A stretch of DNA of 64,000 nucleotides, from assembly GCA_964648865.1 (NCBI GenBank), contig CAZYLV010000002.1, positions 15,272 through 79,271 of the forward strand. Direction: 5' to 3'. The stretch's first letter is position 1; every line of letters starts with the position of its first letter. This stretch comes from an uncultured Gammaproteobacteria bacterium (GTDB taxonomy: Bacteria > Patescibacteriota > Patescibacteriia > 2-12-FULL-57-11). Under the pieces are notes generated by a model. That model had not been told where the DNA came from, did no database searches, and saw only the letters and a program-made list of their open reading frames with translations. Made by a program: the position numbers and the translations under genes. Of the stretch, positions 32,452 to 47,466 are shown in pieces.

Positions 32452-34271
32452 AGATGCCGTGGTGGGTCGTCGCGCTCGGCGCCGTCGCCGCGACCATGCT
32501 CTTCAACCTCACCCAGATCCTGGTGCTCATCGAGGTGCTGCGGCAGGGCGGGGCCTACAACTACTTCACGTTCCTGGGGCCGGACGCGATGGTCAACCTC
32601 GCGCCGATGCTGCGCGACGTGCTTGATGGCCATCTGCGCATCGCCGACGGCCGCGTCCTCGAGCATGTGCACCTGCCGAGCCTGTGGTCGAACGTGACCC
32701 CGTACCTCGTGGCCCCGTTCATCCTCGCCGCGCGCTCGGTGCCCTACGGATTGTTCGTCGGCCGCATCGTGGTGGTCCTGGTCTCCTTCCCGCTGGCGTA
32801 CCTCATCGCCCGGCGGCTGGTCGGCGACGCACGTTGGGCGATGGCGTACGCGTTGCTCTTCTTCGGGCCGACCTTCCTGGGGCTCTACGCGTTCCCTGTC
32901 TCGCGCGAGGGGATCGGGATCCTCTTCCATGCGATCGTGCCGTTCGTCGAGCCGGCGCATGGGGTGCTGCTGAGCAAGTACAACAGCTTCTCCGTCCTGC
33001 CGACGCTCCCGATCTTCCTCGCCGTGACGCTCTTCCTGCTCGTCTGGCTCCAGGAGAAGAAGCGTTGGGCCGCGGCCGCCGCCGGACTCTCCCTCGGGCT
33101 CCTGCTTTCGACCTACGCCACGAGCGCCATCTATCTCGGTGCGGCGATCGGCATGCTCTTCGTCGGCGCGCTCGTCCGGCGTGCCTGGCGGGACGTACGG
33201 CACCTGCTGCTCCTCGGTCTGGCCGCGTTGCCGACCGGCGCCTACTTCATCGTCAACTACTTCACCATCCGCGCGCTGCCGCACGCCGCGGAGTTCTACG
33301 ATCGGCTGAGCGGCGACATCACGCATGCCTTCCGCTGGAGCGCCTGGCCGGAATACGCGGTGTACGCCGCGCTGGCCGCGGCGGTCGTCTGGGCCGCGCG
33401 GCGCGCGAAGGCGGTCGAGGCAGGGCGGCTCGTCGCGGCGCTGCTCCTCTCCGGCATCGTGGTCTGGAACATCCAGGTCCTGACCGGCTACAACCCGGCG
33501 CCGCCGGTCTGGCGCATCCACCAGATCTTCTTCGGGATGGGCCTGGCGGCGTTCTTCCTCGCGCATCGCCTGGTGGCGGAACTGCGGCAGCGGCGGGCGG
33601 CATGGGGGAAGGCCGCTGTCGCGGTCCTGCTGCTCATCGCCACGAGCGCCACCGTCCAGGTGGTCCGCGCGGAGGTCTCGCTGGCGCGCGACCAGGCGCC
33701 GCGTGCGGCCGTCCCGTCGGCGCTCGAGGCCTCGTTCGTCTGGATCGACGGGCACGCGCCGCGCGACGCCGTCTTCGCCAGCCCCTCGCTCGTCTCCGAC
33801 GCCCTCCTGCCGATGCGCACCCACGCCCGCGTGGTCATGCCGCGGGCCATCACCTCGCCCGCCCCGCAGGAGGAGATCCTGGACCGCTGGCTCGCCACGT
33901 ACGCGCTGTTCGACGCGCCCGTGGAGCGGTTCGAGGCGGCCCTGCGCGGCGATGTCGAGGCGGACGACCCGTACGCCTTCAACGCGGAGAACGGGTTGCC
34001 GATCCAGCTCTACGAGTACGCCTTTTTCCCGCACGACCTGGATTACTTCCGCACGCCGCGCAAGAAGGCCATCCCCGAGGACGTCATCCGGACGTTGCTC
34101 GAACGGTATCGGGCGTATCCCCGCGACCTTTCCGCCATCGCCGGGAAGTACCGGCTCGACTACCTCTACGTCGGTCCGTACGAGGAGCGTTTCGCCGGAC
34201 GCGACTTCGACGCCGAGCCGGGCCTGACCAAGGTCTATGATGCGGACGGCGTGCGCATCTACGGCCTATGA
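32448..34271 (+). CDS. Large polytopic membrane protein, putative GT-C-type glycosyltransferase / polymerase
   Basis: About 10 predicted TM helices in the first ~380 aa, then a ~200-aa soluble C-domain. No named motif recognised. Context: two DPM1-like lipid-sugar synthases in the locus. Confidence 0.4.
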   Translation: MKMPWWVVALGAVAATMLFNLTQILVLIEVLRQGGAYNYFTFLGPDAMVNLAPMLRDVLDGHLRIADGRVLEHVHLPSLWSNVTPYLVAPFILAARSVPYGLFVGRIVVVLVSFPLAYLIARRLVGDARWAMAYALLFFGPTFLGLYAFPVSREGIGILFHAIVPFVEPAHGVLLSKYNSFSVLPTLPIFLAVTLFLLVWLQEKKRWAAAAAGLSLGLLLSTYATSAIYLGAAIGMLFVGALVRRAWRDVRHLLLLGLAALPTGAYFIVNYFTIRALPHAAEFYDRLSGDITHAFRWSAWPEYAVYAALAAAVVWAARRAKAVEAGRLVAALLLSGIVVWNIQVLTGYNPAPPVWRIHQIFFGMGLAAFFLAHRLVAELRQRRAAWGKAAVAVLLLIATSATVQVVRAEVSLARDQAPRAAVPSALEASFVWIDGHAPRDAVFASPSLVSDALLPMRTHARVVMPRAITSPAPQEEILDRWLATYALFDAPVERFEAALRGDVEADDPYAFNAENGLPIQLYEYAFFPHDLDYFRTPRKKAIPEDVIRTLLERYRAYPRDLSAIAGKYRLDYLYVGPYEERFAGRDFDAEPGLTKVYDADGVRIYGL

Positions 34272-35788
34272 CGCCCCGCCTGCTGGTCTTCTTCGTGGAT
34301 GGCGGGACATGGACGCTGCTCAAGCCCTGGATGGAGCAGGGGAAGCTTCCGGCGTTCGCGCGTCTCGCGCGGGACGGGGCGACGGCGACGCTCGAGAGCG
34401 TCATCCCCACCGAGACGAGCTATGCGACGGCGGCCTTCGCGCTCGGCAAGCATCCGGCGGCGCTCGGCGCCTTCGCCCCGGGGTCGCGCGGCTTGATCCC
34501 GGCGACCTCCGAGGGTTTCTCGGGCACACGTCTCTGGGAGGCGCTCGGCGAGGCCGGTCACCGCACGCTCGTCATGGACTTCCCGGGCACCTGGCCGCCG
34601 CGAACGGTGAACGGCGTCTTGTTCACCGGCTTCTTCACTCCCGAGGACGCCGAGGACCACATCGTCCCGCCGGAGATCCGTGCGCGGTATCCCGACTATC
34701 CGCGCGGGGGGAGCGAACTCGTCCGCATGCTCGACCAAGGGAAGGATGCGTTGCGTGACAAGGTCTTCGAGGTCACGCGTCGGCGCTTCGCCGCGTTCCG
34801 GGATGCCTGCCGGCGGGAGCCGTACGCCTTCGCCTGCTTCTACGTGAAGGGGACGGACCTGCTCCAGCACTATTTCTGGGACGATCCGGCGACGCTGCTG
34901 GATTACTGGACGGCCGTCGACGGCATGCTGGCTGAGGCGCTAGCGGACGGCTGGACGCACGTCCTGGTGGCCTCGGACCACGGCTTCGACGCGGCCCCCC
35001 GCACGACGTTCTCCACCAACCGCTGGTTGGCCGACGAGGGCTTCCTGCGCCTCACGGCGCGCTCCGGCGCGGGCGGCGCGGTCCGGCGGTTCCTTGCCGC
35101 GCATCCCGGTCTGGCGCGTGCCTACTACCAAGCCCGGCATCGCCTGGTCGGGTCGCGTCCGGCCGCGCGGACCGCCGTGGCCGCCGACCATCTGGTGGAG
35201 AAGGCCGAAGGCAGCGGCACGGTCAGCAAGGACGTCGACGTCGCCAAGAGCGCGGCCTACGCGCCCGGCGGCGCCCTCAACGGCAAGGGCATCTATCTCA
35301 ACCGCACGGCCACGCCACCCGGGTCGTCGGCGTACGACGAGCTGCGGGAGCGCATCATGGCACGCCTGGCCGCGGTGCGTCTCGGCGATGCTCCGGCGTT
35401 CCGCGCCGTGCTGCGCGGCGAAGATGCCTATCCGGGCACCGAGCCGGCCGCCATCCCGGATATCGTGCTGCAGCCGGTACCCGGACTGTTCGTCGAGGCG
35501 CGGGTCGGTCGGGCGGCCATCGGTCCGCGGGAGACCCGCAGTCGGGCGCTCGGTCATCACCTCGCGTCGCCGGACGGGATCCTCATCTGCCGCGGGCCCG
35601 ACATCGCTCCGGGGGAGCGGGGGACCGTCTCCATCCTCGATATGTACCCGACCGTCCTGGCCTGGTACGGTGTCGGCGGACCTGCCGATCTCTCCGGCGC
35701 GGCCGTGCCCTCGCTGCTCGGGCGTGCTCACGTGTCCGCGGCCGATGACGCCGCCGCGCGTCGGGCGATCGGCGAACTGGACCTCTGA
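34268..35788 (+). CDS. Alkaline-phosphatase superfamily protein (type I phosphodiesterase/nucleotide pyrophosphatase / sulfatase-like), paralog 1
   Basis: LLVFFVDGGTW N-terminal metal-site motif and VLVASDHGFD (SDHG). Confidence 0.65.
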   Translation: MTPRLLVFFVDGGTWTLLKPWMEQGKLPAFARLARDGATATLESVIPTETSYATAAFALGKHPAALGAFAPGSRGLIPATSEGFSGTRLWEALGEAGHRTLVMDFPGTWPPRTVNGVLFTGFFTPEDAEDHIVPPEIRARYPDYPRGGSELVRMLDQGKDALRDKVFEVTRRRFAAFRDACRREPYAFACFYVKGTDLLQHYFWDDPATLLDYWTAVDGMLAEALADGWTHVLVASDHGFDAAPRTTFSTNRWLADEGFLRLTARSGAGGAVRRFLAAHPGLARAYYQARHRLVGSRPAARTAVAADHLVEKAEGSGTVSKDVDVAKSAAYAPGGALNGKGIYLNRTATPPGSSAYDELRERIMARLAAVRLGDAPAFRAVLRGEDAYPGTEPAAIPDIVLQPVPGLFVEARVGRAAIGPRETRSRALGHHLASPDGILICRGPDIAPGERGTVSILDMYPTVLAWYGVGGPADLSGAAVPSLLGRAHVSAADDAAARRAIGELDL

Positions 35789-35789
35789 T

Positions 35790-37181
35790 ATGCCCCGTGT
35801 CTTTTTCTTCGGCGTCGACGGCATGCCTCCGCAATGGGTGCTCGACCGCTGGCTGCCGGAGCTCCCGACCTTCAAGCGCCTGGCCGACGCCGGATGCAGC
35901 GGCCGCATCATGAGCACCGTGCCGCCGACGTCCATCGCCGCCTGGACGTCGATCTTCTCCGGCTGCGACCCGGGGCGCCACGGCATCACCGGCTACGTGC
36001 GGCGTCCGCATCCGCCGTCGGTCGAGATGGGGCTCGTCGACGCCACCGACGTGCGCGTGCCGCGGCTCTGGGACGTGCTCACCGCCCAGGGCAAGCGGTC
36101 CATCGTGCTCAACGTGCCGATGACCTATCCCGTGAGGCCGTTCGAAGGCGTGATGGTCAGCGACTTCCTGACACCCGGCTTCGACGGCCCGAGCGTGCAT
36201 CCCGAGTCCTTCAAGAAGGACATCGTGGACCTGCTGGGACACCCGTACAGCTTCGACGTCTCGGAGTTCGGCGGCTACCGGCGCCTGACCAGCGAGGAGC
36301 TCGTGGAGCGCGTCTTCGCCATGACCGATGAGCATGTGCGTCTGGCAGAGCGGCTGCTCGACGGGCCATGGGACCTTTTCGTCTGGGCGACGCTCGGCAG
36401 CGATCGCCTGCACCACACGCTCTGGCGCTACCTGGATCCGAGCCATCCCCAGCACGAGCGGCACCCGGTCTTCTCCTCGGCCATCCTCGACTACTACAAG
36501 AAGCTCGATGGCGTGCTTGCGCGGATGCTCGAACGCCTGACGCCGGAGACCACGGTCATCATCTCTTCCGACCACGGCATGGCCACGATGCACGGCCGCG
36601 TCAACCTCAACGACTGGCTGTTGCGCGAGGGGTACCTCGTGCTCAAGGACGACTTCGCCGCCGAGGTGCGCGAGGGGCCGAAGAAGCTCGCCCTCTCCCG
36701 GGTCGATTGGGACCGCACCCGGGCCTTCGGGTTGGGCGCGTATGAGGCGCTCCTCTATCTGCATCCGGAGAAGAAGGACCAGGACCCCGCGGCCTACGAC
36801 GCGCTGTTCGCCGAGATCGCCGAGGGGATCGCCGCCATCCCCGGTCCGGACGGGCGCAGGTTGGAGACGGTGGTGCATCGGCTCGACCGCCTCTACGGCG
36901 ACGCCGCGCTTGCCGAGGCGCCGGACGGCGTGGTCTACTTCGATGGGCTGGCCATGGGAGCCAATTGCGACGTCGGCAACAACGGGCTCCACTCCTGGGC
37001 CAATACGGTCGGGCCGGACGACGGCCTGCATGCGCCGGAGGGGACCCTCATCATGAGCGGTCGCGGCGTGCCGCAGCGCGACGGCGTGCGTTGCTCCGTG
37101 ACCGACCTGGCACCGACCATCCTCCGGCTGCTCGATTGTCCCGTGCCAGAGCATATGACCGGCAAGGACATCCTGGTATGA
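35790..37181 (+). CDS. Alkaline-phosphatase superfamily protein (type I phosphodiesterase-like), paralog 2
   Basis: VFFFGVDGMPPQW, TVIISSDHGMA. Paralogous to 34268-35788. Confidence 0.65.
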   Translation: MPRVFFFGVDGMPPQWVLDRWLPELPTFKRLADAGCSGRIMSTVPPTSIAAWTSIFSGCDPGRHGITGYVRRPHPPSVEMGLVDATDVRVPRLWDVLTAQGKRSIVLNVPMTYPVRPFEGVMVSDFLTPGFDGPSVHPESFKKDIVDLLGHPYSFDVSEFGGYRRLTSEELVERVFAMTDEHVRLAERLLDGPWDLFVWATLGSDRLHHTLWRYLDPSHPQHERHPVFSSAILDYYKKLDGVLARMLERLTPETTVIISSDHGMATMHGRVNLNDWLLREGYLVLKDDFAAEVREGPKKLALSRVDWDRTRAFGLGAYEALLYLHPEKKDQDPAAYDALFAEIAEGIAAIPGPDGRRLETVVHRLDRLYGDAALAEAPDGVVYFDGLAMGANCDVGNNGLHSWANTVGPDDGLHAPEGTLIMSGRGVPQRDGVRCSVTDLAPTILRLLDCPVPEHMTGKDILV

Positions 37182-37402
37182 CCGACAAAGCCAAACGCAA
37201 GTTCACCTCGGTCTCCATCCCGACGTTCCTCTTCGAGAAGATCAAGGAGCGGATGGGGAGGAGCGGCTTCCCGTCGGTCTCGAGCTACGTGGCCTACGTG
37301 TTGCGGGAAGTGCTCACCGACTCCCAGCCGGACGCCGCTTTGACTCGGGACAATGCAGAAAAAGTCAAGGAGCGGCTACGCTCCTTGGGCTATATCGACT
37401 AG
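37178..37402 (+). CDS. Small ribbon-helix-helix (CopG/Arc-like) DNA-binding protein, paralog 1
   Basis: 74 aa. KFTSVSIPTFLFEKIKERMGRSGFPSVSSYVAYVLREVL fits a beta-strand + two helices RHH pattern. The C-terminal tail ...KERLRSLGYID is shared with 43493-43708. Confidence 0.55.
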   Translation: MTDKAKRKFTSVSIPTFLFEKIKERMGRSGFPSVSSYVAYVLREVLTDSQPDAALTRDNAEKVKERLRSLGYID

Positions 37403-37417
37403 TTTTCCACAGAGAGG

Positions 37418-37446
37418 AGACCCTGCCGCTTGGCAGGGTCTTTTGG
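37418..37446 (+). terminator. Rho-independent terminator
   Basis: AGACCCTGCC-GCTT-GGCAGGGTCT stem-loop followed by TTTTGG. Confidence 0.6.
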
Positions 37447-37450
37447 CTAT

Positions 37451-37488
37451 GTCATCATATGTAATGATTAGTAATTACGGGTAATGAG
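37451..37488 (+). promoter_or_regulatory. AT-rich island with three GTAAT repeats at 10-bp phasing (candidate operator/promoter of the phosphonate module)
   Basis: GTCATCATAT GTAATGATTA GTAATTACGG GTAATGAG directly abuts the start codon at 37489. The local AT content is far above the ~70% GC background. Confidence 0.35.
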
Positions 37489-38256
37489 ATGACTCCTCGG
37501 ACTGCCATTATCGTCGCTGCGGGCATGGGGAACCGCCTGCGGCCGCTGACGGAGGATCGTCCCAAGTGCCTGATTGAAGTCGGCGGTCAGACCATGCTGG
37601 AGCGCGCCGTCCGCATCCTGCGTGGCGTCGGCGTTCCAGAATTGGCCATCATCCGCGGCTATCGCGGCGGGCAGATCGCGGTCGACGGCGCGCGGTACTT
37701 CGAGAACCCTGAGTACGCGCACAACAACATCCTCCATTCTGCCTTCTGCGCCGAAGAGGCCATGGCCGGAGGCTTCCTGCTGTCCTACAGCGACATCGTC
37801 TACCGGCCCTCTGTGGCAGAAGCGGCGTGCGCGACGGACGAAGACATCGCCGTGGTCGTCGATCGCGATTGGAAGCGCGCCTACGAGGGGCGTGACCTGC
37901 GCATGGAGGATGAAGCCGAGGTGGTCCTCGACGCCGATGGGGCGATCAGGAAGATCGGCAAGGGGGCGGTCTCGCCGGAGGAGGCGACCGGCGAGTTCAT
38001 CGGCATGGCGACGTTCTCCGGGCGCGGCGCGGACGTCCTGCGCGCGGAGTTCCATCGCCTGCTCGAGGCCTACCGCGGCCGCTTCGATGAGCCGTTCCAG
38101 CGGGCCGCGTCCTTCCGTAAGGCATACCTGACGGACATGCTCCAGGAACTCGTCGACCGCGGGGTGCGCGTCGGCGTGGTCCCTATCCACGGCGGTTGGC
38201 GGGAAATCGACACGCCGCAGGACCTGGAGCGCGCCAGCCGATTGTTCGCTTCATGA
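37489..38256 (+). CDS. MobA-like/LicC-like nucleotidyltransferase (sugar-/alcohol-phosphate cytidylyltransferase candidate)
   Basis: AIIVAAGMGNRLRPLTEDRPKCLIEVGG N-terminal NTP-transferase signature. About 255 aa. Confidence 0.7.
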   Translation: MTPRTAIIVAAGMGNRLRPLTEDRPKCLIEVGGQTMLERAVRILRGVGVPELAIIRGYRGGQIAVDGARYFENPEYAHNNILHSAFCAEEAMAGGFLLSYSDIVYRPSVAEAACATDEDIAVVVDRDWKRAYEGRDLRMEDEAEVVLDADGAIRKIGKGAVSPEEATGEFIGMATFSGRGADVLRAEFHRLLEAYRGRFDEPFQRAASFRKAYLTDMLQELVDRGVRVGVVPIHGGWREIDTPQDLERASRLFAS

Positions 38257-38260
38257 CCGT

Positions 38261-39610
38261 ATGACGGACCTCCGCAGGAAACGGGAAGGTGCGCTGCTGC
38301 TCGCCGTCCTCAACGACCTCAAGCGCAACGACGAGGTCGCGGCGCAGGAGCTCGGCGTCCCGCTCGAGGAGCTGCGTTCGTGGCTGCGCGGCGATGCCGA
38401 GATGCCCCGCGCGGCGAAGGAACGCGCCGCCGCCATCTGGCCGGTCAACATCCGGGACCTCGAGGTGGTCGAGGATGACGCGCCCGACGGGGTCCGCATC
38501 ATGCGCGCCGCGGAGTCGGAGGCGAGCGAGCGCATCCTCTCGCGCGCCGGCACGCCCTACTACGCCTATCGCGACACGGCCATGTCACGTACCGCGGCGT
38601 TCCGTCCCGAGTGGATCGCGGAGCTGGTCTCCGTCGACGGCGCCGACGCGGACGACCCGGCCGTCCAGTGGAACAACGGCCATCTCCTGCACCAGTTCAC
38701 CTACTTCATCGGTCCCGTCAATTTCTATTATGTCGAGGACGGGCAACGACGCGTCGCCGCCATGGAGACCGGCGATACCATGTACATCACGCCGTTCGTG
38801 CCGCATTCCTTCACGACGCGTAGGACCCCCGAAGGGACACGCGGGCTGATCCTGGCGCTGACCTTCGGCGGGCGGCTCATCGGCGACGCCCATCAGGAGC
38901 TCTCCGTGCTCGGCGAGCGACGCGCCCGGGCGTTGCGCCTGGGGGATGCCGTGGGCGACCAAGGGACGGCCGAGCTGCTGCGGCGCCGCATGCGCGACGC
39001 GCTCCACGCGCAGGATTCCTTGGCGGCCGCGAGCGGCGTGCCGCAGGACCGCCTCGCCGCTCTCCTCTCCGGGGCGCGCGCCTCGCCGGACGAGTTGCGG
39101 TCGCTGGCGGCGGCGCTGGGCGTCAATGTCCGCGACCTCCTGGGGCACGATGCCTCGGAGCCTGCCGTCATCATCGAGAGGCGCGACGCCGGGGAGGAGC
39201 GGGGATCCTCCACGGCCACGGTCCGCCCCCTGGCCGGTACCAGTCGGATGCCGGACATGCGGGCCTTCGAGCTGACGCTCCCGCCCGGCGATGGGACGCA
39301 CGGCCTCGAGACGGACCTGCACCAGTACGGCTACGTGCTCGCCGGGAAGGTCGCCCTGACCTGGGACGCCGACGGCACGGAGCGGCGCGAGGTGTTGGCG
39401 CAGGATGACTCCTTCACCATGAAGCCCGGTACGCCGCATCGCCTCATGGCCACGGACGGGCCGGCGCGGCTCCTGCTCCTGCGCATCGGCGGGGCGCTCT
39501 CCGGTGATGCGCGGCTCGAACTCTCGGCCATCGACGCCGGCGGCATCGGTCGGGCCGTCTCGGAATCGACGCAGTGGTACACGCCGTCCGGTTCGCGCGG
39601 CGTCTCATGA
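38261..39610 (+). CDS. Bicupin non-heme-iron oxygenase of the HEPD/MPnS/HppE family (tandem HTH-like + cupin repeats); MPnS-like candidate
   Basis: 449 aa with two repeats of a helix-turn-helix-like segment plus a cupin barrel. The first cupin has a putative metal site H141-x3-Q145...H182. It sits inside the Ppm-Ppd-ADH phosphonate module. Confidence 0.55.
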   Translation: MTDLRRKREGALLLAVLNDLKRNDEVAAQELGVPLEELRSWLRGDAEMPRAAKERAAAIWPVNIRDLEVVEDDAPDGVRIMRAAESEASERILSRAGTPYYAYRDTAMSRTAAFRPEWIAELVSVDGADADDPAVQWNNGHLLHQFTYFIGPVNFYYVEDGQRRVAAMETGDTMYITPFVPHSFTTRRTPEGTRGLILALTFGGRLIGDAHQELSVLGERRARALRLGDAVGDQGTAELLRRRMRDALHAQDSLAAASGVPQDRLAALLSGARASPDELRSLAAALGVNVRDLLGHDASEPAVIIERRDAGEERGSSTATVRPLAGTSRMPDMRAFELTLPPGDGTHGLETDLHQYGYVLAGKVALTWDADGTERREVLAQDDSFTMKPGTPHRLMATDGPARLLLLRIGGALSGDARLELSAIDAGGIGRAVSESTQWYTPSGSRGVS

Positions 39611-39629
39611 ACCGACCTGATCCAACCAT

Positions 39630-41273
39630 ATGACCAAAGCCAAGAAGCTCCGTGCGCTCCTCGCCGATCCCGCAAAGACCATCGTCATCGCCGGCGCCCA
39701 TAACGGCCTGTCCGCCAAGCTGGTGGAGGAGGCCGGCTTCGAGGGCGTCTGGGCGAGCGGCTTCGAGATCGCCACCTCCCACGCCGTGCCCGACGCCAAC
39801 ATCCTGACGATGGACGACACGCTGCGCGCCGCCAAGGACATGAACGACGCCGTCGGCATCCCGGTCATCGCCGACTGCGACAACGGTTTCGGCAACGCCA
39901 TCAACGTCATCCGCACCGTGCAGGAGTTCGAGCGTGCCGGCATCGCCGCGATCTGCATCGAAGATAACCAGTTCCCCAAACGCTGCAGCTTCTATTCCGG
40001 CGTGAAGCGCGAGCTGGAATCCGTGGAGGAGTTCGCCGGCAAGATCCGCGCCGCCACGCAGGCCCGCAAGGACCCGGACTTCGTGGTCATCGCCCGCACC
40101 GAGGCCATCATCGCCGGCTGGGGCGTGGAGGAGGCGCTGACCCGCGCCAACGCCTACGCCGACGCCGGCGCGGACATGGTGGTCATCCACTCCAAGTCGC
40201 CGGATCCGGGCGAGATCGCCGAGTTCGCGCGCCGCTGGCAGCGCCCGGTGCCGCTCATCGCCATCCCGACCATCTACAAGGACACCTCGGTCGACGATCT
40301 GGCCAAGATGGGCTTCAAGCTCGTCATCTTCGCCAACCACGCCATGCGCTCGTCGATCAAGGCCATGCGCGAGACGCTGCAGACGCTCCGCACGAGCAAC
40401 GTCGCCGCCTCGGTCGAGGACCGCGTGGTGCCGCTCACCGACGTCTACCAGATCGTCAGCCTGTCCACGATGAAGGAACAGGAAGCGGCGTTCCTGCCCA
40501 AGTCGCCGCCGCCCACCAAGGCGCTCATCCTCGCGGCGGGCGCGCCGCACAACGGACTCGAGGCCGAGGGCAAGCCTGTCTGCCTGCTGGAGGTGAAAGG
40601 CAAGACCATCCTGGACCGTCAGCGCGAGCTCTTCGAGTCCATGGGCATCGGCTCCGTGGCATTGGTGCGCGGCTTCGGTGCCGACCGCATCAGCGCGTCC
40701 GGGATCCGCACCTACGACAATGCCGCGTTCGACAGCACGCTGAACGCGGCCTCGCTGCTCGCGGCCGCCGACGAGCTCGACGGTCCGATCGTCATCTCCT
40801 ACGGCGACGTCATCTTCAACCGCGAACTCCTGCAGCAGCTGCTCGAACGTCGTGCCGACGTGACCGTGGCCGTCGATCACTCCTGGCGCGAGCGCTATGC
40901 CGCCAACAAGCAGGTCCGCCCCGGCACCGAGCTCGTGGTCACGGAACGCACGCCGGCCGTGACCAACGGGTATCTGGTGGACGTCGGTCCGAACCACGTG
41001 AAGGCGGTCGGTGCGGCCGTCGACCCGGCTGCCGCCAATGCCGAGTTCATCGGCCTGGCACGGTGCACGGAACGCGGTGCGACGCTGCTCGCCGAGACGC
41101 TCAAGGAGCTCAAGGCGCGCGACGCCGCGCGCTTCGCCAAACTGCGCCTGGCCGACGTCCTGGCCGAACTCGTCGCGCGCGGCGTCGCCGTGGAGACGCT
41201 CGACGTCTACAAGGGCTGGATCGACGTCGACACGCTGCTCGACTACCGCGCGGCGCTCGCCGAGGTCGCCTGA
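39630..41273 (+). CDS. Fusion: PEP mutase-like (ICL/PEPM superfamily) N-domain + LicC/PntC-like cytidylyltransferase C-domain
   Basis: N-terminal PEP-mutase fold (AGAHNGLSAKLVEEAGF, IADCDNGFGN, ICIEDNQFPKRCSF). C-terminal NTP transferase (LILAAGAPHNGLEAEGKPVCLLEVKGKTIL). The EDKx5NS motif is altered to EDNx5CS. Confidence 0.7.
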   Translation: MTKAKKLRALLADPAKTIVIAGAHNGLSAKLVEEAGFEGVWASGFEIATSHAVPDANILTMDDTLRAAKDMNDAVGIPVIADCDNGFGNAINVIRTVQEFERAGIAAICIEDNQFPKRCSFYSGVKRELESVEEFAGKIRAATQARKDPDFVVIARTEAIIAGWGVEEALTRANAYADAGADMVVIHSKSPDPGEIAEFARRWQRPVPLIAIPTIYKDTSVDDLAKMGFKLVIFANHAMRSSIKAMRETLQTLRTSNVAASVEDRVVPLTDVYQIVSLSTMKEQEAAFLPKSPPPTKALILAAGAPHNGLEAEGKPVCLLEVKGKTILDRQRELFESMGIGSVALVRGFGADRISASGIRTYDNAAFDSTLNAASLLAAADELDGPIVISYGDVIFNRELLQQLLERRADVTVAVDHSWRERYAANKQVRPGTELVVTERTPAVTNGYLVDVGPNHVKAVGAAVDPAAANAEFIGLARCTERGATLLAETLKELKARDAARFAKLRLADVLAELVARGVAVETLDVYKGWIDVDTLLDYRAALAEVA

Positions 41274-41274
41274 T

Positions 41275-42384
41275 ATGGTGGACGCACGCGCATTCGTCTC
41301 GGCGCTCGGCGCGGAAGGGTACCGGCTCGCCAGCGGCGTCCCATGTTCGCTGCTGGACACCTTCCTCGAGGCGCTCGATGGCCAGCAGGAGATCGCCCAC
41401 GTCCGGGCGGCCAACGAGGGAGACGCCCTGGCGATCGCCGGCGGCGCCGTCATGGGCGGGACGCCGGCGGTCGTCTATCTGCAGAATTCGGGACTCGGCA
41501 ACCTCATGAATCCGCTGACATCGATGACCGAGATGTACCGGTTGCCGACGCTCATGATCGTCACCTGGCGCGGCAACCCCGCGCGCAGCAAACCGGACGC
41601 ACCCGAGCACGCGTTGATGGGGGAGAAGACCCCGGCCTTCCTGGAGCTGTTCGGCATCCCGCACCGCATCATGCCGGACGACGACGCCGGCGCGCGCCAG
41701 GCGCTTGCCGAGATGTCCGCCGCCGCCCGTGCGCGTCGCGGCACCGCGGCGCTCATCGTCCCGGAAGGGCTGTTCGCCGCGGCGCATGCGCATGAGGCGC
41801 ATCCCGGCTTCACCCGGCAGGACGCCATCCGTGCCCTCCTCGGCCGCGCCCGTCCGGACGATCTCTTCGTGGCGACGACCGGCTTCACGGCGCGCGACCT
41901 CCAGGCCGTCCGCAAGGAGCGCGGCGAGACGAGCGACCGTGATTTCTCGATGATCGGCTCGATGGGGTGCGCCGCACCGATCGGCCTCGGCTTGGCCCAA
42001 GCCTCGGGCAAGCGCGTGGTGGTGCTCGACGGCGACGGCGCGCTCCTGATGCGCATGGGTGTCCTCTCGACGATCGGCTCCCTCCGCCCGCGGAACCTCG
42101 TGCACGTCGTCTTCGACAACGCCGCATACGAGAGCACCGGCGGCCAGGCCACGACCAGCCCGACCACGGACTTCGCCGCCGCCGCGCGCGCCTGCGGCTA
42201 CCCCGAGGCCGTCGTCGCGACGGATGCCGTGGCTGCGGCGCAGGCCTTCTCCGATGCGCCTGGCCTGCGCATGATCGTCTGCAGGGTCCCCGGCAGCACC
42301 GGCGCACCGGCCCCGCGCATCGCCGCCGAACCGGCGGACATCGCCCAAGACATCCGGCGCAGCGTGGGCGCTCCCCCCTTGTGA
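41275..42384 (+). CDS. ppd: Phosphonopyruvate decarboxylase (ThDP-dependent; sulfopyruvate decarboxylase-like family)
   Basis: Single-chain alpha+beta ThDP enzyme, 369 aa. GDGALLMRMG ThDP-binding motif. Adjacent to the PEP mutase-like gene. Confidence 0.7.
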   Translation: MVDARAFVSALGAEGYRLASGVPCSLLDTFLEALDGQQEIAHVRAANEGDALAIAGGAVMGGTPAVVYLQNSGLGNLMNPLTSMTEMYRLPTLMIVTWRGNPARSKPDAPEHALMGEKTPAFLELFGIPHRIMPDDDAGARQALAEMSAAARARRGTAALIVPEGLFAAAHAHEAHPGFTRQDAIRALLGRARPDDLFVATTGFTARDLQAVRKERGETSDRDFSMIGSMGCAAPIGLGLAQASGKRVVVLDGDGALLMRMGVLSTIGSLRPRNLVHVVFDNAAYESTGGQATTSPTTDFAAAARACGYPEAVVATDAVAAAQAFSDAPGLRMIVCRVPGSTGAPAPRIAAEPADIAQDIRRSVGAPPL

Positions 42385-43496
42385 CCTCCTTCCGCTTCCG
42401 CAACGCGTCGGTGACGAGCGGCGCAGGCGCGCTCGAGGTCCTGCGCACGTCGGCGCTGGACACGCGCGTCTTCGTCGTCTCCGGCCGGCATGTCGTCTCC
42501 GATCAGGTCCTGCATCGGCGCGTCACGTCGGCGCTCGGCGAGCGCCTCGTCGGTTGGGAAGCCGTCACGCCGCTTCCGTCCGAGGAGGGGGTCGGCCGCG
42601 TCGCGGCGCGGGCACGCGCGTCGGCCGCCGACACCGTCGTGGCCATCGGCGGCGGCTCGGTCATCGACACCGCCAAGACGGTCTCCGTGTTGGCCGCCAA
42701 CGCGATGGACGTGCGCGACGCGCTCGCCGGCGCCCTGGCCGACGCCACCGTGAAGCTGCGGACCGTCGCCGTGCCGACGCTGTGCGGCAGCGGGAGCGAA
42801 GTGACCCCGTTTTCCGTCCTGTACGCCGACGCGAGGAAGCACTCGCTCGAGTCGCCCCTGCTCCAGCCGGATATCGTGCTGGCGGATCCCGACGTGGTGC
42901 TCGCGCCGCCGGCGCCGCCCGCCAGCGCCGCCTTCCTGGATGCCGTCGCTCAAGCCGCGGAATCCTTGTGGGCCGTGCGTGCGGATGCCGAAAGCGAGGG
43001 GCACGCCGGGCGCTGCCTCGCGGCGGCCGCGGCGTTCCTCCAGCAGGACGATCCCGCGCTGCGCCGGGCCTCGCTCGGCGCGCTGTCGCTTGCCGGCGGC
43101 ATGGCCATCGCCATCTCCCGCACCACTGCGGCGCACGCCTTGTCCTACCCGTTGACCATCCTCCACGGCGTCCCGCACGGCGTCGCCTGTGTCGCGACGC
43201 TCCCGGCGGTGCTCGCCTGGAACGCCGACGTGCAGGAGGAGGACTGTCTCCATCCCCGCGGATCGGCCTTCGTGCGGGAGCGGGTGGCCGAGATCGCGGC
43301 ACTGCTGGACACGCTGGGCGGCGTGACGGGCGTCGCGGAGCGGTTGCGGGTGCCGGTGCGGTTGGGGGAGTGGGGCATCGGCGAGCGCGACCTGGATGCC
43401 TTGGTGGCGGCTTGCGCCAACCCGGAGCGCATGAACAACAACCCCCGCAGGATCACCGCGGAGGCCGTCCGTGCGCTGTACGCGCAGGCGCTCTAA
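42381..43496 (+). CDS. Iron-containing (group III) alcohol dehydrogenase, phosphonoacetaldehyde reductase candidate (PhpC/FomC/Pdh-like)
   Basis: VAIGGGSVIDTAK, GSGSEVT motifs. GTG start overlapping the upstream stop (GTGA). Confidence 0.7.
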   Translation: MTSFRFRNASVTSGAGALEVLRTSALDTRVFVVSGRHVVSDQVLHRRVTSALGERLVGWEAVTPLPSEEGVGRVAARARASAADTVVAIGGGSVIDTAKTVSVLAANAMDVRDALAGALADATVKLRTVAVPTLCGSGSEVTPFSVLYADARKHSLESPLLQPDIVLADPDVVLAPPAPPASAAFLDAVAQAAESLWAVRADAESEGHAGRCLAAAAAFLQQDDPALRRASLGALSLAGGMAIAISRTTAAHALSYPLTILHGVPHGVACVATLPAVLAWNADVQEEDCLHPRGSAFVRERVAEIAALLDTLGGVTGVAERLRVPVRLGEWGIGERDLDALVAACANPERMNNNPRRITAEAVRALYAQAL

Positions 43497-43708
43497 TCGA
43501 TGTATCCGAGGCTGCGGAGCCGATCGCGGACCGTGGCCTCCTGCTCGGCCGTATAGCGCTGCGTCGGCGTCTCCAGCCGGTCGCCGATCTTGTCCGCCAT
43601 CTGCCGCAACGCCCAGGCGAGATAGGCCTCGACCGAGGCGTATCCCTTCTCTGCGGCGCGTTTGGCGAAGCGGTCGTAGAGGTCTTGAGGGATTTCGATA
43701 TTCGGCAT
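43493..43708 (-). CDS. Small ribbon-helix-helix DNA-binding protein, paralog 2
   Basis: 71 aa. NIEIPQDLYDRFAKRAAEKGYASVEAYLAWALRQM plus the C-terminal ...RDRLRSLGYID. Convergent with the phosphonate module. Confidence 0.55.
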   Translation of the reverse strand: MPNIEIPQDLYDRFAKRAAEKGYASVEAYLAWALRQMADKIGDRLETPTQRYTAEQEATVRDRLRSLGYID

Positions 43709-43764
43709 AGACTGGGGGCAACTCACGGGCGATGATAGCACCGTCCCAGGACGGTGTCGATGGT

Positions 43765-44691
43765 ATGGAACACGTGCGATGCGCAATCTGCGGGACCGCC
43801 GACGCGGCGGTCGTGGCCACGCGCGGCTCGCTCGAAAAGGGCGGACCGACGCTCGCGATGCGCAACGTGATGTGCCGCCGGTGCGGCCTCGTGTACATGG
43901 ATCCACGGCCGACCGCCGAGGAATACGCCGAGCAGTATCGGCGGTTCGAGAAGCACCGCTACGGCATCGACAGCCAGGAGGGGGCCGACGCCTTCGTCGC
44001 CGAGCGCGGCGCGCGCTTCGATAAGGCGGACCTGATCCGTTTCGTCGCCTCGCATGTCGCGGTGCCTCCGGGGTCGATCCGTGCGCTCGACGTGGGCTGC
44101 GCCCATGGCCTCTTCTCGGAGCAGCTCAAGCGCACGCTCGGCTGCGCGGTGCAGGGCGTCGAACCCTCGGAGCGCCTGGCTGCCGCGGCCCGCAAGCGGG
44201 CGGAGATGGACGTCTTCGTCGGCACTCTCGATGCGTTCCTGAAGGCGCACCCGGATGCGGGCGGCTTCCACCTCATCGTGCTGAGCCATGTCTTCGAGCA
44301 CTTCCCGGATCCGCACGCCGCGCTCGAGGGCCTGCGTCGGCTGCTCGCGCCCGAGGGCGTGGTCTACGTCGAGGTCCCGGATGTCTCCCATTTCAAGAAG
44401 ACCATGGACCGGTTCTTCGACCTCTTCCACCCCTACTCCTACAGTCCGGCGACGCTCTCGCGGCTGTTGGAGCGCAACGGATGGAAGGCCATCGGCCGCG
44501 CCGACACCAAGAAGTACCGCCTCCAGGCCATCATCGCTCCGGAACGCCATCCGATGCCCGCGACCCGTTGGACCGAGGGAGGCGACCCGCGCGCGCTGAT
44601 GGCCGCGCTGCGCGCCAAGCGGCGTTGGGACGCCCTGCGGCGCGTGGCTGCGCCGATCGCGCGTCTGGTCCCGCGCCGACCCGTCGCATGA
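43765..44691 (+). CDS. Zn-ribbon + class I SAM-dependent methyltransferase (paralog family A, member 2)
   Basis: MEHVRCAICG...CRRCGLVYMDPRPT, then LDVGCAHG motif I. Clear paralog of 31480-32451. An alternative start lies at 43732. Confidence 0.75.
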   Translation: MEHVRCAICGTADAAVVATRGSLEKGGPTLAMRNVMCRRCGLVYMDPRPTAEEYAEQYRRFEKHRYGIDSQEGADAFVAERGARFDKADLIRFVASHVAVPPGSIRALDVGCAHGLFSEQLKRTLGCAVQGVEPSERLAAAARKRAEMDVFVGTLDAFLKAHPDAGGFHLIVLSHVFEHFPDPHAALEGLRRLLAPEGVVYVEVPDVSHFKKTMDRFFDLFHPYSYSPATLSRLLERNGWKAIGRADTKKYRLQAIIAPERHPMPATRWTEGGDPRALMAALRAKRRWDALRRVAAPIARLVPRRPVA

Positions 44692-46052
44692 CCCTCTCAC
44701 GCACCGTCCTCTCCGGCGTCTCGACGCTCGGCGGAGCCAACGTGGCCACGCGGCTGCTGTCCTTCGTCTCCGTCCTGCTCATCACCCGCGGCCTCTCGCT
44801 CGAGGGCTACGGCATGTTCCAGCTCGCGTTGGCCACCGTCGCCCCCGCGGCCACCTTGACCGCATGGGGGCTCGAGGCCGTGGTGCTCTCCGAAATCAGC
44901 CGCGCCGTCGGCACGCAAGCGTTCGGCCGCGCCAAGCGGCTCATGCTGAGCTTCGCGCGCAACAAGATCCTGCTCTCGGTGGCGCTCGTCGCCCTCGCCT
45001 GGCTCTTCCGGCCGCTGGTCGTCGCCCGCTTCGGCGGGTTCCTCAACGAGTACTTCGTCATCCTCAGCGTCTGGGTCGTCGCCAACGAGGCGTTGGCTGC
45101 CGTCGCGCTCCTGCTCCATGCGCACACGCGGTTCAAGGCCATGGCGGCCATGACCGTGGCCGAGCCGATCTTCCGTTTCGCGGCGGTCCTGGTGCTCTGG
45201 CAGCTCAAGGGCTTCACGCCGGTCACCGTCATCGGCGCGTACCTCGTGGGCAAGGCCGGCAGCGCGCTGATCGGCCTGCCGGCCATGGCGCGCGTGCTCG
45301 CGGGCTACCGAGGCGTCGCCGCCGACCCCGAGCGGACGTTCTGGCAGATGGTCCGCGGCCACGGCAAGTGGGGGGCCGTCTCCCAGGCCATCATCCCGCA
45401 GATCGACAGCACGCTGCGTCCGTGGATCACCAATCTCATGCTCGGCACCCAGGCCGTGGCCTTGGTCTCCGTCTCGACGACGGTCTTCTCGGCGCTGACC
45501 AGCCTCCTGCCGGTGCAGAAGGTGCTCATGCCCATCGTGGCGCGTGAGAGCGCTGACCGCCGCAAGGCCGCGCTCATCGCCCAGAAGGCGTCCAAGTACA
45601 GCCTCCTTGCGTACCTGGCGTTCGGCGCCGTGGCGGCGCTCGCGGTCGGGCCGTTCGTGCGGTTCTTCTTCCCCTACTACGGGGATTCGATCCTGCTCAT
45701 CCTCATCACGCTCCTGCGTTTGCCGTTCACCGCCGTCACGCCCGCCCATGACGCGCTCTTCAACGCCTATCGTCTGCAGAAGGGCTTGGCGGGCCACACT
45801 TTCCTCAAGCTGGTGTCGGACGTCACGCTGCTGCCGCTATCCATCCTGGCGTTCGGCATCGCCGGCATGTATTGGGAGCGCCTGCTCAACGTCGCGCTGA
45901 CGACGGTCCTGCGCGAGCGCTACCTGCGGTCACGGGCCCATCTCGCGGCCATCTCGTTGCGGAACCTCGTCGTTTTTGATAATACCGACGTCATGCTGCT
46001 GAAGATGGTGACCTCGCGGTTGCCCTTCTTCCGGCCACGTCCTTCCTCGTGA
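44688..46052 (+). CDS. Wzx-like polysaccharide/oligosaccharide flippase (MOP superfamily)
   Basis: About 12 predicted TM helices, the 'polysaccharide biosynthesis protein' family pattern. ATGA overlap. Confidence 0.65.
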   Translation: MTLSRTVLSGVSTLGGANVATRLLSFVSVLLITRGLSLEGYGMFQLALATVAPAATLTAWGLEAVVLSEISRAVGTQAFGRAKRLMLSFARNKILLSVALVALAWLFRPLVVARFGGFLNEYFVILSVWVVANEALAAVALLLHAHTRFKAMAAMTVAEPIFRFAAVLVLWQLKGFTPVTVIGAYLVGKAGSALIGLPAMARVLAGYRGVAADPERTFWQMVRGHGKWGAVSQAIIPQIDSTLRPWITNLMLGTQAVALVSVSTTVFSALTSLLPVQKVLMPIVARESADRRKAALIAQKASKYSLLAYLAFGAVAALAVGPFVRFFFPYYGDSILLILITLLRLPFTAVTPAHDALFNAYRLQKGLAGHTFLKLVSDVTLLPLSILAFGIAGMYWERLLNVALTTVLRERYLRSRAHLAAISLRNLVVFDNTDVMLLKMVTSRLPFFRPRPSS

Positions 46053-46056
46053 TCCC

Positions 46057-47463: not shown

Positions 47464-47466
47464 CCT

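Follow-up and report, generated by a model that had tools for sequence, protein, structure and literature searches.

A predicted operon for methylphosphonate synthesis and nucleotide activation, with a variant mutase-like protein, in a nonulosonic-acid surface-glycan locus

Five genes on the forward strand lie at 37489-43496 of the window, the 64-kb stretch of DNA that was analysed. They encode an NTP_transf_3 nucleotidyltransferase (NT; 37489-38256; PF12804, 50 bits), a bicupin with HTH_3 and Cupin_2 domains (38261-39610; family match and methylphosphonate synthase (MPnS) signature), a PEP_mutase and NTP_transf_3 fusion (39630-41273; PF13714, 204 bits), a ThDP-dependent phosphonopyruvate decarboxylase (Ppd; 41275-42384; TIGR03297), and a group III Fe-alcohol dehydrogenase (Fe-ADH; 42381-43496; PF00465 and PF25137). 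Their packing is operon-like, with three intergenic gaps of 4, 19, and 1 nt and then an overlap of 4 nt, and gene prediction carried out independently on public contigs with identical proteins gave the same gene set. A sigma-70-like promoter match (37430-37458, forward strand; TTGGCA-17-CATCAT with an upstream TG), which is a consensus match only, sits within the AT-rich gap preceding the cassette. A preliminary description had reported five co-directional genes at these coordinates, two nucleotidyltransferase domains, one of them fused to the mutase, and a cassette without an aminotransferase for 2-AEP. All three points were confirmed: the five genes have strong family matches, both domains are present (PF12804 in the first gene, NTP_transf_3 on 39630-41273), and no aminotransferase was found within the cassette, the nearest being a DegT sugar aminotransferase at 23640-24767. 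Across the whole window there are glycosyltransferases, Wzy_C proteins, Wzx, NeuB, a CMP-nonulosonate synthetase, and epimerases.

The best solved relative of the bicupin is the MPnS of N. maritimus (6b9s), with an end-to-end alignment (E=6e-101, 342 bits); HEPD of S. albus (6b9r) scores lower, at 298 bits. Residue criteria that separate MPnS from HEPD at five positions have been published (PMC9381506 Table S2), and discriminating residues are also given in PMC11978286. The bicupin carries the full H-Q-F-I-H signature, with H141, Q145, F155, I176, and H182 corresponding to H148, Q152, F162, I184, and H190 of NmMPnS. This signature is common to its five nearest database relatives (47-60% identity) and was found in 115 of 124 scored database matches. 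Thus, the earlier designation as a bicupin oxygenase holds in that an oxygenase-type bicupin is present, and is refined by the 6b9s match and the signature: judged by its sequence, the bicupin is of the MPnS type and not a generic oxygenase. The predicted product is therefore methylphosphonate (MPn), possibly together with 2-hydroxyethylphosphonate (2-HEP), and not hydroxymethylphosphonate. Methylphosphonate is a C-P compound known chiefly from marine microbes.

The fusion protein consists of a PEP-mutase-like domain (aa 1-~290) and a divergent NTP_transf_3 domain (aa ~297-547). The best PDB match of the mutase-like domain is PEP mutase 5unc (302 bits), and its score of 296 bits against TIGR02320 does not reach the cutoff of 319.55. 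Its loop, EDNQFPKRCS, fails the EDKX5NS test at two of five positions: relative to the Mytilus enzyme, N takes the place of K116 and C that of N122, whereas D58, D85, D87, E114, D115, K120, S123, R159, and H190 are kept, and all metal- and substrate-binding residues are retained. The EDN..CS loop is a motif of an entire clade, large and conserved, which is nested and intermixed among canonical mutases at 50-55% identity. Members of this clade are encoded directly upstream of Ppd in Sorangium, in an ENA metagenome contig (L093/L094), and in a Woesearchaeota MAG (L056), as is the related EDN..NS mutase of the syntenic locus L096. Because the clade adjoins Ppd-type decarboxylases in every context examined, the mutase-like domain is probably still a PEP mutase despite its variant loop. 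The position of Asn122, Cys in this protein, is Thr in phosphonopyruvate hydrolase (PMC9381506 Table S2), and its activity may be altered given this Cys. Of the "canonical early phosphonate steps" described previously, the pathway logic stands, but the mutase, with its loop and its score below the family cutoff, cannot be called canonical.

Ppd scores 347 bits against the NCBIfam equivalog TIGR03297, above the cutoff of 312.5, and a GDG...NN ThDP motif is visible in its translation. Among NCBIfam models, the Fe-ADH matches TIGR03405 (Phn_Fe-ADH) best, with 178 bits, a score that falls far short of the equivalog cutoff (423.7). Its gene directly follows Ppd, a position conserved in most MPnS loci, and the enzyme is predicted to be a phosphonoacetaldehyde reductase producing 2-HEP. 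The stand-alone nucleotidyltransferase has the canonical AAGxGxRLxPLT..PK motif; among solved structures it is closest to LicC (1jyk, 52 bits), and PntC (6pd1) is another of its best relatives. Homologs were present in 33 of 43 MPnS-type loci compared with 1 of 33 HEPD-II-type loci (nominal Fisher p=2e-11), and NT::MPnS fusions are numerous among metagenomic MPnS proteins. By analogy, it is predicted to be a CTP:methylphosphonate (and/or 2-HEP) cytidylyltransferase. The mutase-fused NTP_transf_3 domain lacks the GxGxR arginine, an absence common among mutase-fused domains.

Upstream of the cassette, on the forward strand, are genes for a 607-aa multi-pass membrane protein with at least seven hydrophobic segments (32448-34271), for which no Pfam or NCBIfam match was found, and for two alkaline-phosphatase (AP)-superfamily paralogs that are 28% identical (a, 34268-35788, PF01663, 88.5 bits; b, 35790-37181, PF01663, 119 bits). 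Of the cassette's neighbours, the AP pair is the best conserved: orthologs in L095 and L096 show 52% and 39% identity to paralog a and 62% and 42% to paralog b, and the membrane protein is the conserved upstream partner of the pair, with homologs of 34-37% identity at the same position in both loci. In addition, paralog b has a 37% homolog beside the L009 MPnS cluster and weak homologs in the Nitrosopumilaceae locus L015. Paralog a has VDG, PTET, and SDHG motifs and no TM segment or signal peptide; its predicted location is the cytoplasm, and it could act as a phosphonyl transferase or esterase. Downstream, also on the forward strand, are a SAM-dependent methyltransferase (43732-44691; PF13489, 80 bits), which is 38% identical to the one at 31432-32451 and has several paralogs in the locus, a Wzx-type flippase (Polysacc_synt; 44688-46052; PF01943, 43 bits) with a 39% ortholog in L095, a TagF-like/BFO_1060-like transferase (46057-47463; PF04464, 26 bits, and NF046086, 49 bits, both weak), and an N-terminal, membrane CDP-alcohol (CDP-OH) phosphotransferase fused to a HAD phosphatase (47467-48936; PF01066, 28 bits; PF13419/PF00702). 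The TagF-like protein has orthologs in L095 and L096 and is 31% identical to its paralog at 50937-52391; from the weak NF046086 match, a role as nonulosonic-acid or other glycosyltransferases seems a better fit for the two. The CDP-OH::HAD protein, in which DxxDGxxAR, the opening of the family motif, is visible, represents a rare fusion with nine database relatives and could be the transferase for a head group activated with CMP or CDP. The closest relatives of its CDP-OH domain also occur, as in L097, with a HAD and an IPCT-like transferase and with no phosphonate genes in view, so the domain may serve a different head group. The protein may instead form, with a third nucleotidyltransferase, a CDP-alcohol module of its own. 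Thus, the genes previously listed as transfer candidates are all present, but the TagF-like proteins fit that role less well than a glycosyltransferase role, and CDP-OH::HAD is perhaps part of another module.

In the pathway that we propose, the mutase-like domain (39630-40514), with its variant active-site loop, would convert PEP to phosphonopyruvate, which Ppd, assigned at the family level above a curated cutoff, would decarboxylate to phosphonoacetaldehyde. The Fe-ADH, judged by family and position, would reduce this to 2-HEP, and the bicupin, in which all published specificity residues are present, would cleave 2-HEP oxidatively with O2 to MPn and CO2/bicarbonate. The stand-alone nucleotidyltransferase would then form CMP-MPn from MPn and CTP, as its co-occurrence with MPnS and the analogy with LicC/PntC suggest, and the divergent mutase-fused domain may share this activity or act on 2-HEP instead. 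A neighbouring enzyme, either the AP pair (34268-37181) with the membrane protein or CDP-OH::HAD, would place the methylphosphonyl group on a hydroxyl of a glycan intermediate, and Wzx would export the modified intermediate. The preliminary description had already proposed a route from mutase through Ppd and Fe-ADH to 2-HEP without an AEP branch, in agreement with published MPnS neighbourhoods (PMC9381506), and the same pathway logic has been described in N. maritimus and in marine bacteria (PMC9381506; PMC6697681). A system of this kind is already known; the one described here differs by its mutase variant and its high-GC host. Among other loci, L099 has the gene order of the window, NT-MPnS-(NT)Ppm-Ppd-ADH, followed by two LicD phosphotransferase genes, L088 has the order Ppm-Ppd-NT-MPnS-LicD, and in L008 the ADH is followed by genes for a cytidylate kinase and a CDP-OH transferase. 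In syntenic loci elsewhere, the AP pair, the membrane protein, and CDP-OH::HAD are kept while the cassette content varies. Taken together, we consider it likely that 37489-43496 is an operon that makes methylphosphonate and tags it with a nucleotide, inside a nonulosonic-acid surface-glycan locus.

Other chemistries were weighed against this reading. Were the bicupin a class-II HEPD, the cassette would yield hydroxymethylphosphonate and formate, as in actinomycete natural-product clusters; 6b9r is indeed close, the His-Gln-His metal ligands are common to both, and cultured high-GC actinomycetes are among the 33 HQYGH loci recovered. We find this very unlikely, since at two Gln-flanking positions the bicupin has Phe and Ile where HEPD has Tyr and Gly, which is the published discriminator, MPnS outscores HEPD, the nearest relatives are of the HQFIH type throughout, and coupling to a nucleotidyltransferase is a trait of MPnS-type and not of HEPD-type loci. 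A sulfonate pathway, in which a sulfopyruvate decarboxylase and a sulfoacetaldehyde reductase lead to isethionate and no phosphonate is made, is suggested by secondary matches of the decarboxylase to sulfopyruvate decarboxylase and of the ADH to the sulfoacetaldehyde reductase SarD. These scores are far below the cutoffs (126 against 221.5 and 96 against 148 for sulfopyruvate decarboxylase, 83 against 700 for SarD), whereas the Ppd model is above its own; action on sulfopyruvate, named previously as an outcome that would overturn the phosphonate reading, is therefore disfavoured. Two further products of the operon, the MPnS-type enzyme and the mutase-family protein, have no role in sulfonate metabolism that we know of, and the probability of a sulfonate pathway appears negligible. 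It is less far-fetched, but still unlikely, that the EDN..CS clade has another activity, of a hydrolase or lyase type via the Cys, with a canonical mutase encoded elsewhere or the phosphonate imported. The loop and the low TIGR02320 score fit this idea, the KRC of the loop is similar to the catalytic-Cys loop, K[KR]CGH, of isocitrate and methylisocitrate lyases, and EDQVxPKRCG paralogs display a loop of that type. Furthermore, neither a mutase nor a decarboxylase is in view with the NT(-MPnS)-ADH cassettes of L095 and L098, so the early steps can be encoded elsewhere. On the other hand, all remaining catalytic residues are kept, the clade is intermixed with canonical mutases, and L096 provides the EDN..NS intermediate. 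A Ppd-type decarboxylase, which needs phosphonopyruvate, is the next gene in four of four EDN..CS contexts examined as well as in L096, and in the window and L056 the variant protein is the only mutase candidate within an otherwise complete MPn operon, which argues for a mutase.

As for the acceptor, the surrounding genes suggest that methylphosphonate is probably attached to a sugar polymer of the cell surface. The classical substrates of CDP-OH phosphotransferases are lipids or polyol phosphates, and MPn could instead be passed by such an enzyme to a membrane lipid or small polyol, giving a methylphosphono-lipid or solute and no phosphonoglycan. In nine MPnS-type loci, the ADH gene is directly followed by one for a protein of the CDP-OH::HAD family, a CDP-OH gene likewise comes after the ADH in the Sorangium cassette, and the window contains a myo-inositol-phosphate synthase (18881-20260) and an IPCT-like transferase (59491-60216). 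Phosphonate clusters with CDP-OH enzymes have been read as phosphonolipid clusters (PMC8942020). However, the cassette of the window is set among glycosyltransferase, Wzx, Wzy-like, and nonulosonate genes over 64 kb, close relatives of the cassette have LicD-type glycan phosphotransferases instead of the CDP-OH enzyme, and the AP-superfamily proteins, its best-conserved neighbours, are soluble and are not lipid enzymes. A lipid or polyol acceptor is thus rather unlikely, and a surface glycan is the preferred one.

The ends of the cassette had been placed at 37178 and 43708, which are the bounds of two small ORFs that bracket the five genes. The left one (37178-37402, forward strand) encodes a 74-aa protein with the C-terminus RLRSLGYID, whose ribbon-helix-helix (RHH) resemblance was judged by eye only and for which no Pfam/NCBIfam match was found; the right one (43493-43708, reverse strand) encodes a 71-aa paralog (33% identity, E=6e-14) and is convergent with the ADH gene, with a 4-nt overlap. 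Copies of the left ORF occupy the same position in L095 (78% identity) and L096 (66%), a partial copy is present in L098, and a 36% copy adjoins NT-MPnS in L032. Our guess is that these RHH-like proteins are regulators of the cassette. The right ORF has a 63% identical copy in L095 in the same position and orientation, and a promoter-like site was found at 43760-43732 on the reverse strand.

The cassette comprises five co-directional genes on the + strand (37489-43496), all of which were present with family matches where the preliminary description had placed them. Pfam matches identified a nucleotidyltransferase (NT) of the NTP_transf_3 family (37489-38256), a bicupin with HTH_3 and Cupin_2 domains (38261-39610), and a fusion of PEP_mutase (204 bits) and NTP_transf_3 domains (39630-41273). 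They are followed by a ThDP-dependent phosphonopyruvate decarboxylase (Ppd; 41275-42384) and an Fe-alcohol dehydrogenase (Fe-ADH; 42381-43496). The genes are separated by 4, 19 and 1 nt, the last pair overlapping by 4 nt, and the same five genes were found in gene calls on public contigs with identical proteins. Such identical proteins turned up only in Logan SRA assemblies and one 150-kb NCBI contig; among GTDB genomes, a single-protein scan gave no match, and a profile scan gave only relatives at or below 48% identity. The GC content is about 70% across the whole window, in which neither Rfam nor a tRNA search detected RNA genes. Judged by sequence, the operon is predicted to be, in function, a methylphosphonate (MPn) pathway of the N. 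maritimus / SAR11 type, in which nucleotidyl activation follows the Pnt style. The pathway first proposed for it was upheld, with refinements, among them that the bicupin is of the methylphosphonate synthase (MPnS) type and that the PEP mutase (Ppm) is non-canonical.

The bicupin had been described simply as an oxygenase; the family assignment stood, and its closest structure and signature residues narrowed it to the MPnS type. Among all PDB sequences it matched N. maritimus MPnS (6b9s) best (E=6e-101, 342 bits), end to end, residues 8-446 aligning with residues 15-456. The class-II HEPD of S. albus (6b9r) scored lower (298 bits), and the match to HppE was far poorer. The HTH_3 and Cupin_2 domains found by Pfam correspond to the MPnS architecture, a full-length bicupin with an N-terminal HTH-like domain. 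A published rule distinguishes MPnS (H148, Q152, F162, I/V184, H190; N. maritimus numbering) from HEPD (H148, A/Q152, I/Y162, E/G184, H190) (PMC9381506 Table S2) and has also been applied elsewhere (PMC11978286). In the window protein, H141, Q145 and H182 form the 2-His-1-Gln iron triad, aligned to H148, Q152 and H190, and F155 and I176 occupy the Phe162 and Ile/Val184 positions that pack against Gln. The same MPnS signature was found in all five nearest database relatives (47-60% identity) and in 115 of 124 scorable database matches. Across 80 bicupin loci of GTDB, taken from one genome per species, 43 were of this HQFIH type, from Nitrosopumilaceae, DPANN-type archaeal MAGs, Chloroflexia, Acidobacteriota, Myxococcota, Agarilytica and others, and 33 were of the HQYGH type, which takes in every cultured actinomycete of the set. 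A hybrid H-Q-Y-I-H signature, with the HEPD-II Tyr and the MPnS Ile, was observed in three Chloroflexota / SAR202 MAGs (L038, L047, L053); the published rule allows no prediction of their product.

Class-II HEPD (S. albus 6b9r) and actinomycete PhpD-type HEPD share with the window bicupin the fold, the His-Gln-His ligands and the substrate 2-HEP, which Ppm, Ppd and Fe-ADH of the same operon supply. However, HEPD has Tyr and Gly beside the Gln where the window protein has Phe and Ile, so that the HEPD reading is disfavoured by the signature residues. Phe and Ile are reportedly causal for MPn formation, in work said to be that of Born et al. in 2017. Since H141, Q145, F155, I176 and H182 agree with the signature, and the nearest relatives carry the same one, the predicted product is methylphosphonate, not hydroxymethylphosphonate. 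The bicupin is accordingly best described as a putative MPnS (EC 1.13.11.73) that would make MPn and CO2 from 2-HEP and O2.

The operon had been said to encode the canonical early phosphonate steps; the set of steps is present, but the mutase is non-canonical. Its loop reads EDNQFPKRCS and does not match the EDKX5NS motif (E114, D115, K116, N122, S123): E, D and S are kept, whereas N113 and C119 stand in place of K116 and N122. In addition, the protein scored below the TIGR02320 equivalog cutoff (296 against 319.55 bits). TIGR02320 was still its best model, ahead of the PnPy hydrolase model (266 bits), and matches to PF13714 (204 bits) and to the PEP mutases 5unc (302 bits) and 1m1b (242 bits) place it in the ICL/PEPM-superfamily fold. 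Aligned without gaps to the Mytilus enzyme (1m1b), the protein keeps D58, D85, D87, E114, D115, K120, S123, R159 and H190, and only K116 and N122 are replaced. Window residues D55, D82, D84, E111, K117, R156 and H187 thus correspond to Mytilus D58, D85, D87, E114, K120, R159 and H190, which we take to be the Mg2+ and substrate ligands. Phosphonopyruvate hydrolase has Thr at the Asn122 position (PMC9381506 Table S2).

The variant loop is conserved. EDN[VIQ]FPKRCS was present in all of the best 120 database matches (51-88% full-length identity), with many from Sorangium, Minicystis and Polyangiaceae. The 150 nearest representatives of 50%-identity clusters included 96 with EDK..NS, 21 with EDN..CS, 2 with EDS..CS and 14 with EDN..NS; the Cys-variant motifs (23 of 150) were interspersed among canonical mutases at about 50-55% identity. 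The EDN-x5-CS clade takes in Sorangium and other Polyangia, DPANN archaeal MAGs and the window organism. In all four EDN..CS contexts examined, the next gene encodes a Ppd-type decarboxylase: in the window, where Ppd starts 1 nt past the mutase stop codon; in a Woesearchaeota MAG (L056); in Sorangium (L091), where Ppd is split and its halves scored 144 and 174 bits with TIGR03297; and in an ENA metagenome contig (L093/L094). The Woesearchaeota protein (1174-3618) is an 814-aa NT::mutase(EDNSDEKKCS)::NT triple fusion within an operon of MPnS, Ppd, ADH and a CDP-OH transferase. A stand-alone mutase of the EDN..NS type (EDNIFPKRNS) in the related locus L096 is likewise followed by Ppd (373 bits). 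Since a phosphonopyruvate-specific decarboxylase requires a source of phosphonopyruvate, mutase activity is the economical reading. The window mutase is probably functional as a PEP mutase (EC 5.4.2.9), as far as conserved residues and gene context can tell, and we lean towards regarding the EDN-x5-CS proteins as genuine PEP mutases, a conserved clade dropped by censuses filtered on EDKX5NS. Such censuses of phosphonate producers demand a perfect match to the motif (PMC6697681, PMC8931226, PMC12723261), a requirement that would systematically remove the whole clade. The Sorangium (L091/L092 10001-14457) and L093/L094 loci are compact cassettes in which an EDN..CS mutase-like::NT fusion is accompanied by a split Ppd (alpha, beta) and a second NT, with a CDP-alcohol phosphotransferase also present in Sorangium; no transaminase, ADH or oxygenase was in view in either.

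The window Ppd passed the TIGR03297 equivalog cutoff (347 against 312.5 bits) and has the ThDP GDG motif (LDGDGALLM...FDNAAY), G259-D260-G261 being the published criterion for Ppd (PMC9381506 Table S2). Action of the decarboxylase on sulfopyruvate, which the preliminary description had named, together with a lack of mutase activity, as grounds for abandoning the phosphonate reading, is disfavoured by this score, and a sulfopyruvate/sulfonate reading of the cassette was rejected on curated-model scores. The Fe-ADH fell short of the phosphonate equivalog TIGR03405 (178 against 423.7 bits), yet this was its top-scoring model, and its operon position suggests that it is the phosphonoacetaldehyde reductase.

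The two NT domains differ. The stand-alone NT has the canonical GxGxRLxPLT..PK nucleotide-binding motif, reading AAGMGNRLRPLTEDRPK, and a PF12804/LicC-like fold, its best solved relatives being LicC (1jyk, 52 bits) and PntC (6pd1, 29 bits). In the mutase-fused domain the Arg of GxGxR is absent, the motif reading AAGAPHNGLEAEGKP. We rejected as unproven the idea that this domain is dead: canonical EDK..NS fusions have equally divergent AAG motifs. A PF12804 domain is fused to about one third of known mutases, for example in the CyTase::Ppm fusion Fom1 (PMC6697681). Homologs of the stand-alone NT were found in 33 of 43 MPnS-type loci and in 1 of 33 HEPD-II-type loci (nominal Fisher p 2e-11, the loci being phylogenetically non-independent); unlike the window, the HEPD-type loci recovered had no coupled NT. 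Many metagenomic MPnS proteins are NT::MPnS fusions of about 700 aa. One related locus (L099) has the same five-gene order, NT-MPnS-Ppm-Ppd-ADH, followed by two LicD genes, and another (L088) has the order Ppm-Ppd-NT-MPnS-LicD. Small ORFs beside the L099 cassette were considered as homologs of the ORFs that bracket the window cassette and rejected on alignment.

Because the window cassette has no AEP transaminase, AEP is not the predicted NT substrate, in line with the earlier proposal that activation is not of the usual CMP-2-AEP kind. By analogy with LicC/PntC (PMC6697681), and from the co-occurrence patterns of the loci, we infer that the activated form would be CMP-MPn. In L008, a cytidylate kinase (14696-15430) and a CDP-OH phosphotransferase follow the ADH; the kinase lies between ADH and transferase in the DPANN-type MPnS clusters L008, L009, L010, L012 and L023. 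This arrangement fits a pathway in which CMP is released when a CMP-activated phosphonate is transferred, and is then recycled.

The outer limits first assigned to the cassette, 37178 and 43708, are ends of two small ORFs (37178-37402, +, 74 aa; 43493-43708, -, 71 aa) that are paralogs of one another and both point into the cassette. They share 33% identity (E=6e-14), both end in RLRSLGYID, and neither matched a Pfam or NCBIfam model; by eye they look like ribbon-helix-helix (RHH) regulators. Directly upstream of the cassette are a 7-TM membrane protein without a family match (32448-34271) and two PF01663 paralogs of the alkaline-phosphatase (AP) superfamily (34268-35788, 35790-37181), which have no signal peptide and keep the metal and nucleophile motifs. 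Syntenic loci were reached through a rare fusion of a CDP-alcohol phosphotransferase with a HAD phosphatase (CDP-OH::HAD; 47467-48936). In L095, the order is methyltransferase, membrane protein, PF01663 pair, RHH, an NT-ADH cassette, RHH, Wzx and CDP-OH::HAD. L096 has the membrane protein, PF01663 pair and RHH before a cassette that begins with Ppm-Ppd-ADH, with a divergent arm of methyltransferase, TagF and CDP-OH::HAD, and the cassette of L098 is NT-MPnS-ADH. From these gene orders, the block of membrane protein, PF01663 pair and RHH always abuts a phosphonate cassette, which itself varies between the 2-HEP and MPn types. Both small ORFs are kept in L095, and single copies occur in L096, L098 and a Nanoarchaeota MAG (L032), where the copy adjoins NT-MPnS. 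Window 32448-48936 and these three syntenic loci share 40-78% protein identity at DNA GC contents of 46%, 52%, 59% and 70%, and therefore the locus family either spans very different genomes or moved horizontally. The idea of a mobile element was rejected: although the paralogous ORFs are inverted, no long DNA inverted repeat flanks the cassette, and no MPnS homologs were found among PLSDB plasmids.

The whole 64-kb window is a glycan locus, and each flanking gene listed in the preliminary description was recovered. It contains three tandem Wzy_C + TPR paralogs resembling O-antigen ligases/polymerases (1285-7981), the flippase gene wzx (44688-46052), GT4 and GT2 glycosyltransferases, an asparagine synthase-like gene, many methyltransferases, a DegT aminotransferase, a formyltransferase and NeuC/WecB-type epimerases. 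A nonulosonic-acid module (55213-58272) consists of a NeuB-like synthase (-), a CTP_transf_3 CMP-sugar synthetase-like gene (-) and a UDP-GlcNAc 2-epimerase. At the end of the locus, the presence of CysD, CysN and another gene with a PAPS_reduct domain, the second in the window (60229-63114), suggests either that sulfate is activated to modify a glycan or that it is assimilated in the ordinary way. In Sorangium, a gene similar to the Wzy_C + TPR paralogs is found 9 kb away from the mutase cassette (L091, from 20879). The glycosyltransferase, Wzx, Wzy_C and nonulosonate genes around the cassette suggest that its product may be carried on a surface polysaccharide, as a putative phosphonoglycan.

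For the transfer step, the AP-superfamily pair and CDP-OH::HAD are candidates of roughly equal rank. CDP-OH phosphotransferases, at the family level, follow ADH in nine MPnS-type loci. On the other hand, the closest CDP-OH-only relative (L097) has a HAD gene and the gene of an IPCT-like transferase beside it, and no phosphonate genes were visible there. The window itself has a third NTP_transf_3 gene that is IPCT-like (59491-60216, +), its best match being the inositol-1-phosphate cytidylyltransferase domain at 86 bits, together with a non-mycothiol-type myo-inositol-phosphate synthase (18881-20260, -; TIGR03450 only 29 bits). These observations count against CDP-OH::HAD as the MPn transferase, and the three window genes could instead form a CDP-inositol head-group module. 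The two TagF-like paralogs (46057-47463, 50937-52391) matched weakly a model of the BFO_1060-family glycosyltransferases, and they may be transferases for the nonulosonate sugar instead.

Clusters of the same kind are known from N. maritimus SCM1 and marine bacteria, reportedly through Metcalf et al. in 2012 and Born et al. in 2017. They share with the window the enzymes Ppm, Ppd, Fe-ADH, MPnS and NT, the MPnS specificity residues, nearby AP-superfamily ('sulfatase') and glycan genes, and an inferred product that is likewise an MPn ester on a surface polymer. A survey of MPnS clusters has already linked glycan genes, NTs, LicD and sulfatase-like genes to the pathway (PMC9381506). Unlike these clusters, the window has 70% GC, an EDN..CS mutase fused to PF12804, RHH brackets, a nonulosonate-type glycan setting and the conserved block made up of the membrane protein and the AP-superfamily pair; its MPnS is only 40-48% identical to any genome representative and at most 60% identical to any database protein. 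With the Pnt logic (PntC/LicC plus LicD) it shares a LicC/PntC-like PF12804 enzyme and a mutase-fused PF12804 domain, but it has no AEP transaminase, its fused domain lacks the GxGxR motif, and LicD, present in L088 and L099, is absent from the window. The 'Burkholderiales_CDP-OH' phosphonolipid clusters also combine a PntC-fused mutase, a second PntC and a CDP-alcohol phosphotransferase; they make AEP or hydroxy-AEP through a transaminase in a phospholipid context (PMC8942020), whereas the window has predicted MPn, a HAD-fused transferase and a glycan locus. Phosphonoglycans with 2-HEP are reported for Glycomyces sp. and Stackebrandtia nassauensis (Yu et al. 2014, as cited in PMC8942020 and PMC12723261): in these high-GC Gram-positives, Ppm-Ppd-ADH make the 2-HEP that is found on an exopolysaccharide. 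Compared with that description, the window adds an MPnS gene, so that its predicted end product is MPn.

The window offers an MPn pathway that is complete at the sequence level, in an organism of 70% GC and within a rich, well-delimited glycan locus that holds candidate transfer enzymes. Methylphosphonate, which marine Thaumarchaeota and SAR11-type bacteria are known to produce, has been proposed as the precursor of the aerobic methane of oxygenated waters; to our knowledge, its acceptor and the attaching enzyme have been an open question since 2012. The variant mutase gives concrete ground to doubt the strict EDKX5NS filter of phosphonate surveys. If our reading of it is true, the window would be a natural proof case, a complete MPn operon with the variant as its only mutase candidate; phosphonate and MPn production outside the ocean would be under-counted, and producers such as soil myxobacteria overlooked. 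Should none of this hold, the window would still add a clean example to the clusters already known for decorating cell surfaces with phosphonates. Finally, a recognisable Shine-Dalgarno sequence was absent at all start codons inspected (25 nt upstream of 13 genes, 32448-47467), which is unusual for high-GC Actinomycetota.
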